Below, piece by piece: positions 34,275 to 42,638 of a stretch of 64,000 bases of DNA. Source of the stretch: Desulfobacterales bacterium (lineage in GTDB: Bacteria > Desulfobacterota > Desulfobulbia > Desulfobulbales > JAGXFP01). The notes below the pieces were generated by a model. That model was not told where the DNA came from, did no database searches, and saw only the letters and a program-made list of their open reading frames with translations. The stretch lies in contig JAGXFP010000050.1 in NCBI GenBank assembly GCA_024637225.1, forward strand, positions 11,905-75,904, in the 5' to 3' direction. The translations under genes and the position numbers were made by a program. Within the stretch, counting starts at the first letter, position 1. Each line of letters opens with the position of its first letter.

Positions 34275-35696
34275 TCAGCAGAGCGGTTCCAGGGAAGTAC
34301 TGCGGCACATGAGGTTTTCCAGTTCCGGCCGCTCGCAGGAAAGCTTCTTCATGCCGTTCCGTAAAGCCGATTGCAACCCTTCCTCCACGGTCGGATGGTA
34401 GTAGGGAAAGCGGAGAATATCGAAAACGGTCAAATTCTCCTGAATGGCCCAGGCCAGCAGATGGGCGAGATGCTCACCGCCTGGGGCTGCCATCTCGCCT
34501 CCCAGCAGGCGGCCGTCATTCTTGTCGAGATAGATCCGGGCGAGTCCCCGGTTTTCAGCGCGCATCCGCGCCCGCCCCTGTCTGCCGAAATCATATTCAC
34601 CGATAACCACATCATCAGAGTCGCTGAGCTCCGCAAACGATGCCCCGACCATGGCGATCTGGGGATCGGAATAGACAATCGCCAAAGGTGTCCGCCGCCG
34701 GAAGCAGTTGGCTTCCTTACGCACGGCGTTGTAACCGGCGATATGACCTTCGTCGTTGGCCTCATGGAGAATGGCTCGTTCGTTGTTCACGTCTCCGGCA
34801 ATAAAGATCGGCGAGTCCCCGATCCGCATCGATTCACGATCGAAGACGGGAACCCCGTGGGCGTCAGTTTCGAGATCAAGCTCCTCAAGGCCCAGACCGG
34901 AGAGATTGGGCCGCCGCCCCGTGCATAACAGGGCCTTTTCGACCATAACCCGCTGATTCCTGCTCTGAAGGAGCAATTCTTCGCCCTGCCGAAGCGGGTC
35001 CACTTTAGCGCCGAGATTGATTGAGTATTCCTCCCGCAGAGCGGCCAGCGCCGCCGAGTTCACTTCCGGGTCGGTCAGCCCCGCCGCCATATCGGCGAGA
35101 TGAAAACCGTGCACCTCAATCCCCAGACGGCTTAAGGCCTGGGAGAACTCGATCCCGGAAGGGCCGAGCCCGATTACCGCCATGCGGCGGGGCAGTTGAT
35201 CTAGTTCGAAAAATTGATCGGTGGTGACCACCAGACCGCCCAGGTTTTCCCAGCCGGATGGAATTATCGGACTGGAGCCGGTGGCGATTACCACCCGGCC
35301 CGCCTCGACGATGTCGTCGCCGATCCGCAGAACCGCGGGCTCGATAAACCGCGCCGGCGCCTCGATGCTTTTTTCACCGAGAGCCTTGGTTCCCTTGACT
35401 GTCCCGGCCACGAAGCGATCCCGCAGACCTTTGACGTAGGCCAGGGCATCCTTCGACTCCAGGCTCAGATTTTCTACCCCGGCAACTCCCATCCCGGCCA
35501 TGATCCGGCGGGAATGGAAGACCGCGGCGACTTCGCACAGGGTTTTGGTAGGCATGCAGGCCACCCGGGCGCAAGTAGTGCCGTAGGGTCCCTGATTGAC
35601 CAGCAGGAAGTCATCGGTTACCCGTTTGACCTCGGCCACCGCCGACAGCCCCGCCGTTCCGGCGCCGATAATCACCACTTCAACTCTCTTCGTCAT
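34275..35696 (-). CDS. Class I pyridine-nucleotide-disulfide oxidoreductase (dihydrolipoamide dehydrogenase-like flavoprotein)
   Basis: FAD-binding site VVIIGAGTAGLSA. Redox-active CxxxxC (TTCARVACMPTK). Second dinucleotide fold MAVIGLGPSGIE. C-terminal HPTVEE dimer-interface motif. The start overlaps the atpG stop (ATGA). Confidence 0.85.
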   Translation of the reverse strand: MTKRVEVVIIGAGTAGLSAVAEVKRVTDDFLLVNQGPYGTTCARVACMPTKTLCEVAAVFHSRRIMAGMGVAGVENLSLESKDALAYVKGLRDRFVAGTVKGTKALGEKSIEAPARFIEPAVLRIGDDIVEAGRVVIATGSSPIIPSGWENLGGLVVTTDQFFELDQLPRRMAVIGLGPSGIEFSQALSRLGIEVHGFHLADMAAGLTDPEVNSAALAALREEYSINLGAKVDPLRQGEELLLQSRNQRVMVEKALLCTGRRPNLSGLGLEELDLETDAHGVPVFDRESMRIGDSPIFIAGDVNNERAILHEANDEGHIAGYNAVRKEANCFRRRTPLAIVYSDPQIAMVGASFAELSDSDDVVIGEYDFGRQGRARMRAENRGLARIYLDKNDGRLLGGEMAAPGGEHLAHLLAWAIQENLTVFDILRFPYYHPTVEEGLQSALRNGMKKLSCERPELENLMCRSTSLEPLC

Positions 35697-36613
35697 GTGA
35701 TCTCCTCCTCTGAGCCTTGCTTTTGCGCCAATGCTTCAAACCCGGCAACTATATCGAGCAGTTCCTCGGTAATCGACATCTGCCGATTGCGGTTATATTC
35801 GGCTTGCAGATCTTCAAGGCGCTCCTTGATGCTTTTTTCCGCGCCTTGCATGGAGGCGAGGCGGCTGGCGTTTTCACTGGCCAGGGAGGCGGCAAGCGCT
35901 TTGAACAGAGAGACAAAAAGATATTGGCGGATCAGGCTGGCGAAAAGGGTCGCCCAAGGCACCGTGAAACGGGGCAGATTGTTGGTCGGCCACTCATTGC
36001 GCCGGTACTCGACCAGGCGGGGATGTTCCACCGGCAGCAATTGCAGGTCCCGGGGATCAAACCGGGCGCCGCCGACCGGTTCGCAATAGCAGAGCAGGAT
36101 CCGGCCCACCTTTTCCCGCTGCCGCCATTCATCGATAATCAGTAGAATCTCCTGAACCTTGGCGCCGATATGGCTTGCCGAAGTGGGCACGGTCAGATAT
36201 TCCCCGACCGTGGCCCCAGCTTCTTCCAGACGCCCGACTACCCGTTCGCCGATCGCCAGGAAATAAGTCTCGGCATCGGCTCCGTTACCCTTATGTTTTT
36301 CCAGGGTTTTCAGGGCGTGGGAAACCACCAGGTCGTTGAGCTGCCCGCACATGCCCATGTCGGACCCGAAGACAATGACTCCGATCGGGCCTTCCGCCTC
36401 CGCATAAGCCTTCCGGTCAAGGCGGCCCGCTTCCTCCGATGAAAGGGCCACCCCGAGGCCGAGCTCGACGGTGCGAAAATATTCCCGCAACGACTCCACC
36501 GCCCGCTCGAATTGCCTGATGTTCACCGCCGCCATGGCCTTCATGGTCTTGACCACGGTGTGCAGATCGGTGGTGCTGGCGATGGTTTTCTTCAATCCCT
36601 CAATGGTCTGCAT
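35693..36613 (-). CDS. atpG: N-type ATPase gamma subunit
   Basis: N-terminus MQTIEGLKKTIASTTDLHTVVKTMKAMAAV and C-terminal ...RQMSITEELLDIV helix, both typical of F-type gamma. Last gene in the atpDCQRBEFAG order. Confidence 0.85.
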   Translation of the reverse strand: MQTIEGLKKTIASTTDLHTVVKTMKAMAAVNIRQFERAVESLREYFRTVELGLGVALSSEEAGRLDRKAYAEAEGPIGVIVFGSDMGMCGQLNDLVVSHALKTLEKHKGNGADAETYFLAIGERVVGRLEEAGATVGEYLTVPTSASHIGAKVQEILLIIDEWRQREKVGRILLCYCEPVGGARFDPRDLQLLPVEHPRLVEYRRNEWPTNNLPRFTVPWATLFASLIRQYLFVSLFKALAASLASENASRLASMQGAEKSIKERLEDLQAEYNRNRQMSITEELLDIVAGFEALAQKQGSEEEIT

Positions 36614-36622
36614 CGACGCCTC

Positions 36623-40805: not shown

Positions 40806-41190
40806 ATTTCTGCATATCGTAAAATTTCCTGATAAAGCCAGTTTCGATCCGGGCCGCGGCCGCCCGGCTCTTTTTTTCCTGTTCATCAAGGTTCCGGAAC
40901 CGTTCCCCGATCAACCTTTCCAGCTCACCCAGATCTTCCCCCAGCACCCCGTCCCGGCTCGAAACCAGAACTTCGTCGCCCTGCTTGACTAATACCCCTT
41001 CATCGATGGCCAGAAATCGTTCTTTGCCGGCCGCGGCAGGAACAAAACTGAGGATGCCGGCAACCAGGGGCGCCACGCAATCGATATGGCGAGGCAGGAG
41101 ACCGAAAGAACCATCGGCGGCCTCAACCACAATCTTATCCACCTTTTCATCGACCAGGATGGCGGTGGGCAGCATTACCTTGAGTCGCAT
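40798..41190 (-). CDS. atpC: N-type ATPase epsilon subunit
   Basis: [47 protein letters not shown] is the typical epsilon beta-sandwich. Its start overlaps the atpD stop. Confidence 0.85.
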   Translation of the reverse strand: MRLKVMLPTAILVDEKVDKIVVEAADGSFGLLPRHIDCVAPLVAGILSFVPAAAGKERFLAIDEGVLVKQGDEVLVSSRDGVLGEDLGELERLIGERFRNLDEQEKKSRAAAARIETGFIRKFYDMQKYG

Positions 41191-42638
41191 CAGGACGCCT
41201 CACTTTCTTTTTCTTCCTGCTCCGGTTCCGATTCAGCCGCCGATTCAGCCTGGCCCTCGACCTCGGAAATGGCCCCGATCATATAGAGGCTTTTCTCCGG
41301 AACATCGGTGAACTCATCGTTCAAGATCCGTTCGCACCCCTCCAGCGCATCTTCAAGCTCGACGCTCTTGCCCTCGATCCCCGTAAACTGTTCGGTCACG
41401 TAAAAGGGCTGGGTAAAAAATCTTTCGAGGCGCCGGGCCTGCTGCACCGTGCGCCGGTCGTCGCTGGACAACTCCTCCATGCCGAGCATGGCGATAATAT
41501 CCTTGAGTTCCTCATAGTCGGCCAGGATCTTGCGGATGGCCTGGGCGAGATTGTAATGGCGCTCCCCGACGATATGGGGAACCAGGATCTTGCTCGCCGA
41601 CTGCAATGGATCGACCGCTGGATAAAGCCCTTCGCTGGCCTTTTTCCTGGAGAGGACAATGGAGGCGGAGAGGTGGCCGAAGGTATGGACCGCGGCCGGA
41701 TCGGTAAAATCGTCGGCCGGGACGTATACCGCCTGGACCGAGGTGATGCTGCCGGAATCGGTATTACAGATCCGCTCCTCGAGTTCGGCCAGTTCGGTTC
41801 CCAGGGTCGGCTGGTAGCCGAGCCTTGAGGGGAGCTGGCCGAGAAGCCCGGACACCTCCATGCCCGCCTGGATGAAGCGGAAGATATTGTCGATCAGCAA
41901 AAAGACATCCTGCTTGGCCGTATCCCGGAAGTACTCCGCCATGGTCAAGGCGGTATGGCCTACCCGGAACCTGGCGCCCGGCGGCTCGTTCATCTGGCCG
42001 AAGACCATGACCGTGTTGTCCAGAACCCCGGCTTCCTTCATCTCCCGATAGAGCTCCTCGCCCTCGCGGCACCGTTCGCCGATCCCGCAGAACAGGCTGA
42101 CCCCCTGATGTTCGCCGACCATGTTGTTGATCATTTCCATGATCACCACGGTCTTGCCGACCCCGGCCCCGCCGAAAAGCCCCGCCTTGCCGCCTCTTTC
42201 CAGGGGGGAGAGCAGGTCGATCACCTTGATCCCGGTATGGAAAACCTCCGATCTGGCCGACTGTCTTGACAGGGGGGGCGGCGACTGGTGAATAGAGCGC
42301 CGGGGCAGGCCCTCCAGCGGAGCCAGTTTGTCGATCGTTTCGCCGAATACATTGAAAACCCGGCCGAGGATCTCGCGGCCCACCGGGGCGGTTAGAGTCT
42401 CCCCCGTATCGGTAACCACTGAGTCCAGACCCAGTCCCCGGGTAGGGGTAAGCGCAATGCCGCGCACGGTCCGCCGGTCGAGATGGATCAGGGTTTCGAT
42501 AACGATTTCGTTATCGGCCCCGGTGCGCAGGGCGGTACGGATCGCCGGCAGGCCCGAATCGAAGACAATATCCACCACGCTGCCTCGAACCGCCGCCACC
42601 CTGCCGCTATTAATTCGGTTGCTTTTATTGATTGTCAC
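41190..42638 (-). CDS. atpD: N-type ATPase beta subunit
   Basis: Walker A GGAGVGKT, plus the DNIFRF and [15 protein letters not shown] motifs. It is the first gene of the operon, a hallmark of the N-ATPase order. It has an acidic C-terminal tail and a GTG start. Confidence 0.95.

Follow-up and report, generated by a model that had tools for sequence, protein, structure and literature searches.

A complete N-type ATPase operon beside a canonical ATP synthase

The window analysed here is a stretch of 64,000 nucleotides (nt) from a Desulfobacterales genome (GenBank assembly GCA_024637225.1, contig JAGXFP010000050.1, positions 11,905 to 75,904), and it carries on its minus strand, at 35693-42638, nine intact open reading frames (ORFs) in the order atpD-C-Q-R-B-E-F-A-G. 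These genes very probably (about 0.9) form a complete and, judging from sequence, apparently functional operon for an N-type rotary ATPase, which would be accessory to a canonical F-type ATP synthase encoded elsewhere in the genome. The source assembly is a 3.28-Mb metagenome-assembled genome (MAG) of the Desulfurivibrionaceae (87.9% complete, contamination 1.34%), in which the operon sits on contig C4. In this host, a sulfur-cycling deltaproteobacterium, the enzyme would most likely be an accessory sodium-coupled rotary ATPase. An earlier note, made from the DNA letters, had proposed a nine-gene N-type block distinct from a housekeeping F1Fo operon, and reading of the translations bears out its extent, its gene order and the integrity of every frame.

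All nine products exceed the curated cut-offs of the NCBIfam exception models for the "alternate F1F0 ATPase", that is, the N-type. The operon begins with atpD for the beta subunit (41190-42638, 482 amino acids (aa), GTG start; TIGR03305, 826.6 bits against a cut-off of 752), which falls in the N clade of the tree described below, and continues with atpC for epsilon (40798-41190, 130 aa; TIGR03166, 135.6 bits, cut-off 100.1). These are followed by atpQ (40491-40805, 104 aa from an ATG at 40805; PF09527, 54.7 bits, and TIGR02230, 136.6 bits) and atpR, which encodes an N-ATPase-specific membrane protein (39988-40290, 100 aa; PF12966, 73.7 bits, and TIGR03165, 70.7 bits). The membrane and stalk subunits are encoded by atpB for subunit a (39248-39991, 247 aa; TIGR03306, 337.2 bits, cut-off 302.1), atpE for subunit c (38977-39255, 92 aa; TIGR03322, 162.9 bits), and atpF for a long b subunit (38127-38972, 281 aa, GTG start; PF00430 and PF00213; TIGR03321, 225.3 bits, cut-off 224.7). 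The last atp genes are atpA for alpha (36623-38134, 503 aa, with an inferred GTG start at 38134; TIGR03324, 782 bits, cut-off 750.5) and atpG for gamma (35693-36613, 306 aa; TIGR03323, 303.4 bits, cut-off 282.35). Pfam matches include the alpha/beta nucleotide-binding domains, the epsilon beta-sandwich, ATP-synt_A, ATP-synt_C, and the gamma family.

The two small membrane proteins that set the N-type apart had been recognised beforehand by the peptides GWSVAIPTLAGIALGVWLD...NAWLW (AtpQ) and GGLWWTVRR (AtpR). Both peptides are found in the translations, and the profile check proposed with them (PF09527 and PF12966) returned matches above cut-off, in Pfam as in NCBIfam. The AtpR match is the only one in the whole genome. 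PF09527 matches twice, the second gene preceding the F-type a and c genes on contig C47, and this profile is therefore not diagnostic alone. The block contains no separate delta (OSCP) gene; the sole full OSCP gene of the genome lies on contig C26. The canonical alpha-gamma-beta-epsilon order is not found either, beta and epsilon leading the block.

To locate the rotary ATPases of the genome, we searched the 3.28-Mb assembly with PF00006 and PF00213. Three enzymes were recovered: the N-type on C4, an F-type divided between C26 and C47, and a V/A-type on C62. The F-type set comprises genes for b', b, a full-length delta, alpha, gamma, beta, and epsilon at C26:69946-75977, and for an AtpZ-like protein (PF09527), an AtpI-like protein, a, and c at C47:26372-28061. 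This complete enzyme is the second, canonical atp system that the earlier note had expected elsewhere in the genome, and together with the N-type model scores it upholds the view that the window operon is not a housekeeping one. The C26/C47 enzyme shares with the window homologous alpha, beta, gamma, epsilon, a, b, and c subunits, including the Walker motifs and the stator arginine, but differs in having a separate delta, both b and b', no AtpR, and two loci. In a reciprocal control, its beta scores 580.9 bits on TIGR03305, failing the cut-off of 752, and 822.7 bits on the general F-type model TIGR01039, which it passes; the C26 gamma is likewise below the cut-off of the N-type gamma model.

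Phylogeny and distribution

We constructed a maximum-likelihood tree of 23 beta subunits (17 N-type and 6 F-type), with both copies from five other genomes. The N- and F-type betas separate at 100% support in the Shimodaira-Hasegawa-like approximate likelihood ratio test, and the window beta lies outside the F-type, as had been predicted for this phylogeny, in which beta is the only subunit.

Related loci were collected with the window beta as query against one genome per species, yielding 80 loci in more than 10 phyla. All 80 are colinear with the window, 57 extend to atpG, and 47 match all nine genes. The best beta match (98% identity) is from another Desulfurivibrionaceae MAG, and the next is from Desulfofustis glycolicus (76%). 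N-type betas at 67-76% identity occur in the Bacteroidota, Planctomycetota, Verrucomicrobiota, Cyanobacteria, Nitrospirales, Chloroflexota, Actinomycetota, and several proteobacterial classes. Within the order, AtpR was found in 44 of the 151 sampled genomes (38 of 120 high-quality ones) and gave no match in the remaining 107; within the genus, 4 of 8 genomes have it. These counts indicate a patchy, accessory distribution. Three same-genus genomes retain the operon at 90-95% nucleotide identity. A strict empty-site comparison with same-genus genomes that lack AtpR found flanks too diverged in DNA, with only FtsH-like matches at 67-70%.

The N-ATPase was defined, with these features, by Dibrova, Galperin and Mulkidjanian in 2010 (PMC2881411). 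The window operon shares with that description the gene order, AtpQ and AtpR, the lack of a delta gene, a long AtpF with a delta-like C-terminus, a c subunit with two glutamates and the ESTxxY motif, the status of a second copy beside a canonical ATPase, and the patchy distribution. Nothing essential differs, and what is specific to the window is local detail: a spacer of 200 nt between atpQ and atpR that varies with the strain, the acidic tail of AtpF, and an apparently resident dihydrolipoyl dehydrogenase-like (lpd-like) gene abutting atpG. The operon is thus a textbook N-type member and of an already known kind, since the family was defined in 2010 and is recognised by curated models; it brings nothing biologically new relative to the literature that has appeared since then. 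The value of the assignment lies mainly in annotation. Subunits of an N-type (alternate) ATPase, and not of the cell's ATP synthase, are what the nine genes should be called, and with correct naming, metabolic reconstructions of this Desulfurivibrionaceae genome will not count two ATP synthases.

Operon layout and catalytic residues

Most junctions within the operon are tight. The atpD and atpC genes overlap by 1 nt (TGATG), atpR and atpB by 4 nt, and atpC/atpQ, atpB/atpE, and atpF/atpA by 8 nt each, while short gaps separate atpE from atpF and atpA from atpG. The sole loose junction is the 200 nt between atpQ and atpR. The atpQ ORF is open from 40889, with the TIGR02230 alignment beginning at ORF residue 30, and the atpA ORF is open from 38251, with the TIGR03324 alignment beginning at ORF residue 45. 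The TIGR03305 model aligns to the atpD product only from residue 12, which leaves the true atpD start uncertain. The GTG at 42638 is the only in-frame start past the upstream stop codon, and it is directly preceded by GGAGA at an unusually short spacing. The catalytic and stator residues can be read in the translations: beta carries Walker A GGAGVGKT and GERCREG, alpha carries GDRQTGKT, and subunit a has its stator arginine within AVRLFGNM.

The spacer between atpQ and atpR (40291-40490, minus strand) spans 200 nt, compared with a projected median of ~25 nt across 61 loci, although in some loci the gap ranges from 185 nt to 2.7 kb. It contains a 65-codon ORF that starts ATGACTGA across the atpQ stop and is not conserved. 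The same-genus genome G077 is 95% identical outside this region; its spacer measures ~65 nt, and its ORF ends after 20 codons. G084 lacks a stretch of 106 nt, and the DNA that it has in common with the window is read in another frame. These two genomes led us to reject the ORF as a conserved tenth subunit. In a further genome, G054, the spacer is occupied by a palindromic repeat longer than 350 nt, at which the assembly breaks, and two of the related loci (L038 and L082) carry insertions of 1.2-2.7 kb at the same junction. From these comparisons we conclude that the spacer is a strain-variable insertion hot spot and not a conserved gene.

The b subunit and the missing delta

Pfam places an ATP-synt_B region (residues 7-126) and an OSCP region (residues 175-245) in AtpF, which ends in a 35-residue acidic tail (residues 247-281). 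Residues 175-245 align to OSCP profile positions 101-172 at 33.4 bits (cut-off 22.3). AtpF thus matches the C-terminal half of OSCP alone, the N-terminal alpha-binding domain having no counterpart. In a direct BLASTP comparison, AtpF resembles the genome's own delta only weakly (E = 0.012). The earlier note had suggested that the last ~90 residues before the acidic tail of this 281-aa protein resemble a delta C-terminal domain and had proposed a comparison with OSCP/delta. The length, the tail, and the OSCP resemblance, now above the Pfam cut-off, all hold, but the matching stretch is ~70 and not ~90 residues long. The idea that AtpF combines b with part of delta is correct but not new, having been published in 2010 (PMC2881411) and stated again in a 2026 preprint.

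At 281 aa, AtpF is of typical length for an N-type operon (range 244-422 aa in 63 N-type AtpF proteins), and many of these proteins have low-complexity tails; the tail here is acidic, as opposed to a Lys/Pro-rich tail. A sequence search of the Protein Data Bank (PDB) found no solved structure of an N-type stalk.

The c subunit and the coupling ion

The c subunit carries E30 in helix 1 and E63-S64-T65-x-x-Y68 in helix 2. In a residue-by-residue alignment, these positions correspond to E32, E65, S66, T67, and Y70 of the Na+-binding c11 ring of Fusobacterium nucleatum (PDB 3zk1/3zk2), and all liganding residues match. The F. nucleatum ring belongs to the canonical F-type synthase of that organism, not to an N-type operon, and its loop reads RQP, whereas the loop is QQP in all 71 N-type c subunits compared, that of the window included. 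The exact combination of a helix-1 glutamate and ESTxxY is present in 47 of the 71 N-type c subunits from related loci. Read by hand, the c subunit of the genome's F-type enzyme has methionine in place of the helix-1 glutamate, while its helix 2 reads E-S-L, and because of this Met and Leu it is without two of the Na+ ligands. The two-carboxylate Na+ site in the window c subunit is the reason for proposing, with reasonable confidence, that Na+ is most likely the coupling ion.

The two membrane arginines of AtpR, R48 and R78, fall on alignment columns occupied by Arg in 73/73 and 68/73 homologues, respectively. Dibrova et al. (2010, PMC2881411) proposed that, while the enzyme is being assembled, these arginines pair with the two glutamates of the c subunit.

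The c subunit of the window reads A-x-G-x-A-x-G-x-G, compared with G-x-G-x-G-x-G-x-G in I. tartaricus (both read by hand). Gly-to-Ala changes go together with larger rings.

Proposed mechanism and alternative readings

The enzyme would work as a rotary machine in which the alpha3-beta3 head, together with gamma and epsilon, rotates the c ring against subunit a. The long AtpF would serve as the stator stalk, its C-terminus standing in for the C-terminal domain that a delta subunit would otherwise provide. Both AtpQ and AtpR are small membrane proteins, which by analogy with AtpI would assist in c-ring assembly or regulation. Each c subunit is predicted to bind Na+ at the two-carboxylate site formed by Glu30 and by Glu63, Ser64, Thr65, and Tyr68. 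The likeliest physiological role would be ATP-driven Na+ extrusion, in keeping with the classical proposal that N-ATPases are ATP-driven Na+ export pumps (Dibrova et al. 2010, PMC2881411); we lean slightly toward this pump direction over synthesis. Published experiments on other N-ATPases, as summarised in the 2026 preprint, include Na+-coupled hydrolysis and synthesis as well as salt tolerance.

Several observations weigh against reading the block as a complete, functional, sodium-coupled accessory operon. AtpF clears TIGR03321 by just 0.6 bits, and the variable 200-nt spacer could weaken the coupling of atpQ and atpR expression. The window beta is placed beside the N-type beta of Desulfofustis with 97% support, and because it is sister to the N-beta of another member of the Desulfobulbales, inheritance within the order is possible. 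The GC content of the operon (59.5%, against 54.9% for the genome) reaches only the 94th percentile of same-size genome windows; this is suggestive, but base composition was for this reason rejected as proof of recent transfer. In addition, the N-type c17 ring of Burkholderia pseudomallei is H+-specific despite its helix-1 Glu (Schulz et al. 2017, PMC5376962).

That last enzyme provides the basis for a proton-coupled alternative, in which the N-type ATPase would act in pH homeostasis. It resembles the window in operon type and in the helix-1 glutamate, and it is the only N-type c-ring to have been characterised biochemically (PMC5376962). Its proton-specific ring, however, reads E61-T62-M63..Y66, whereas E63-S64-T65..Y68 of the window follows the Na+ pattern and is identical at the liganding positions to the Na+-binding 3zk1, making proton coupling improbable here. 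A silent or decaying block left by lateral acquisition would be compatible with the strain-specific insertions at the atpQ-atpR junction, among them the long palindromic repeat of G054, but is very unlikely given nine intact frames, conserved catalytic and ion-site residues, and the retention of the operon in three same-genus genomes at the 90-95% nucleotide identity reported above. We can virtually dismiss a housekeeping F1Fo ATP synthase with unusual gene order. The proteins do pass general F-type equivalog models as well, the window beta scoring 631.6 bits on TIGR01039, but the beta of the complete, delta-bearing F-type set on C26 and C47 scores higher on that model (822.7 bits). The window beta is only 52% identical to this F-type beta of its own genome, compared with 68-76% to N-type betas of other phyla, and the window has AtpR, for which 107 of the 151 genomes of the order gave no match. 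The housekeeping reading is refuted unless the C26 and C47 contigs are contamination, which is estimated at 1.34% for this MAG.

Alternatively, the same N-type enzyme may act mainly as a stand-by Na+-driven ATP synthase at low ion-motive force, relying on a large c-ring with a high ion/ATP ratio. The alanines in the glycine motif of the window c subunit, of the kind that goes with larger rings, would fit this role, and the ring of B. pseudomallei has 17 subunits (PMC5376962). The 2026 preprint argues for a low-membrane-potential stand-by synthase in N-ATPases generally, citing Na+-coupled ATP synthesis in vesicles. On the other hand, Dibrova et al. (2010, PMC2881411) argue that N-ATPases are no substitute for the main synthase, and deletion of the operon in M. 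acetivorans left ATP synthesis unaffected (PMC2881411). The genome already has F-type and V/A-type enzymes, and nothing in the sequence sets the direction. Stand-by synthesis is accordingly a tentative possibility that we consider rather unlikely, and an accessory Na+ pump remains the preferred reading.

Other rotary ATPases of the genome

The F-type enzyme is predicted to use H+ and the N-type Na+, while the V/A-type has Na+-like ligands. Three rotary ATPases with such predicted preferences hint at a Na+-rich or alkaline habitat. The c ORF of the F-type enzyme encodes 112 aa, including a hydrophobic N-terminal extension of ~35 residues. The V/A-type operon (C62:34251-42012) has the order B-D-I-K-E-like-DUF2764-A. 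An E-DUF2764-A-B-D-I-K order occurs in Bacteroidota, and the C62 order is a permutation of it. Compared with Enterococcus hirae NtpK, the K subunit has Ser/Gln, Gln, and Glu at the Na+-liganding positions.

Regulatory signals

An Rfam search of the whole window returned nothing at the gathering threshold and only chance-level matches in 42400-43300, which led us to reject a known riboswitch or leader upstream of atpD. When the 495-nt region upstream of atpD was compared by nhmmer with 74 upstream regions, only that of the 98%-identical MAG matched, and a leader common to N-ATPase operons is not supported. In a scan for promoters and terminators, sites were no more frequent than in shuffled sequences.

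The lpd-like gene and the surrounding region

The co-oriented gene that follows atpG (34275-35696, minus strand) encodes a 473-aa class I pyridine-nucleotide-disulfide oxidoreductase with a CxxxxC motif, which matches the "dihydrolipoyl dehydrogenase" model NF004939 at 548 bits. Its ATG overlaps the atpG stop (ATGA), and a ribosome-binding site, GAGGAGGAG, lies just upstream. It had been claimed beforehand that the operon ends with alpha and gamma; atpG is indeed the last atp gene, but the overlap with this lpd-like gene means that the end is less clear-cut.

The arrangement of atpG and the lpd-like gene is retained in the two same-genus genomes G077 and G084 (95-96% protein identity). In G054, where the operon is 90% identical, atpG is followed by 146 nt and then a ferredoxin gene, with no lpd-like gene, and the gene is found in none of the 80 other N-ATPase loci. 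No genes for E1 or E2 partners occur near it. Relatives at 55-58% identity adjoin a 140-aa membrane protein and FtsH in two Desulfobulbaceae-type contigs, one of which belongs to a Desulfobulbaceae MAG, and no ATPase genes occur near them; AtpR had no match in the genome of one of these contigs. In the window, these same neighbours, here a 141-aa membrane protein (44825) and FtsH (45262), are separated from the lpd-like gene by the N-ATPase block. We rejected the lpd-like gene as an N-ATPase accessory in view of its absence from the 80 loci and from G054 and of the relatives that adjoin FtsH but no ATPase genes. Most simply, the N-ATPase operon and a few small genes would sit inside an older lpd/FtsH neighbourhood, where the lpd-like gene would be a resident that may be co-transcribed with the operon but is no part of the N-ATPase.

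It is doubtful, by comparison, that insertion of the N-ATPase block upstream of the lpd-like gene has, in this lineage, made the latter a tenth cistron, translationally coupled through the ATGA overlap and a strong ribosome-binding site, which would tie expression of a disulfide reductase to a Na+ pump. If this were true, the disulfide reductase would be part of an oxidative-stress and envelope-stress neighbourhood together with superoxide reductase, the sll1863-like protein, and FtsH.

The genes upstream of the operon are divergent (plus strand, 43134-47163). They begin with a 121-aa membrane ORF without a family match and continue with stress-type genes, namely a desulfoferrodoxin-type superoxide reductase (43711-44106) and an sll1863-family stress protein (44107-44682). 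The 141-aa membrane protein follows, and then FtsH (45262-47163). Directly past the lpd-like stop, at 33871-34272, are three tandem units of ~130-139 nt, each a long imperfect hairpin (-47.8 kcal/mol). The unit occurs in 103 near-full copies (median identity 94%) on 43 contigs of this genome and in many further copies in same-genus genomes, and looks like an element of the repetitive extragenic palindromic (REP) or miniature inverted-repeat transposable element (MITE) type.

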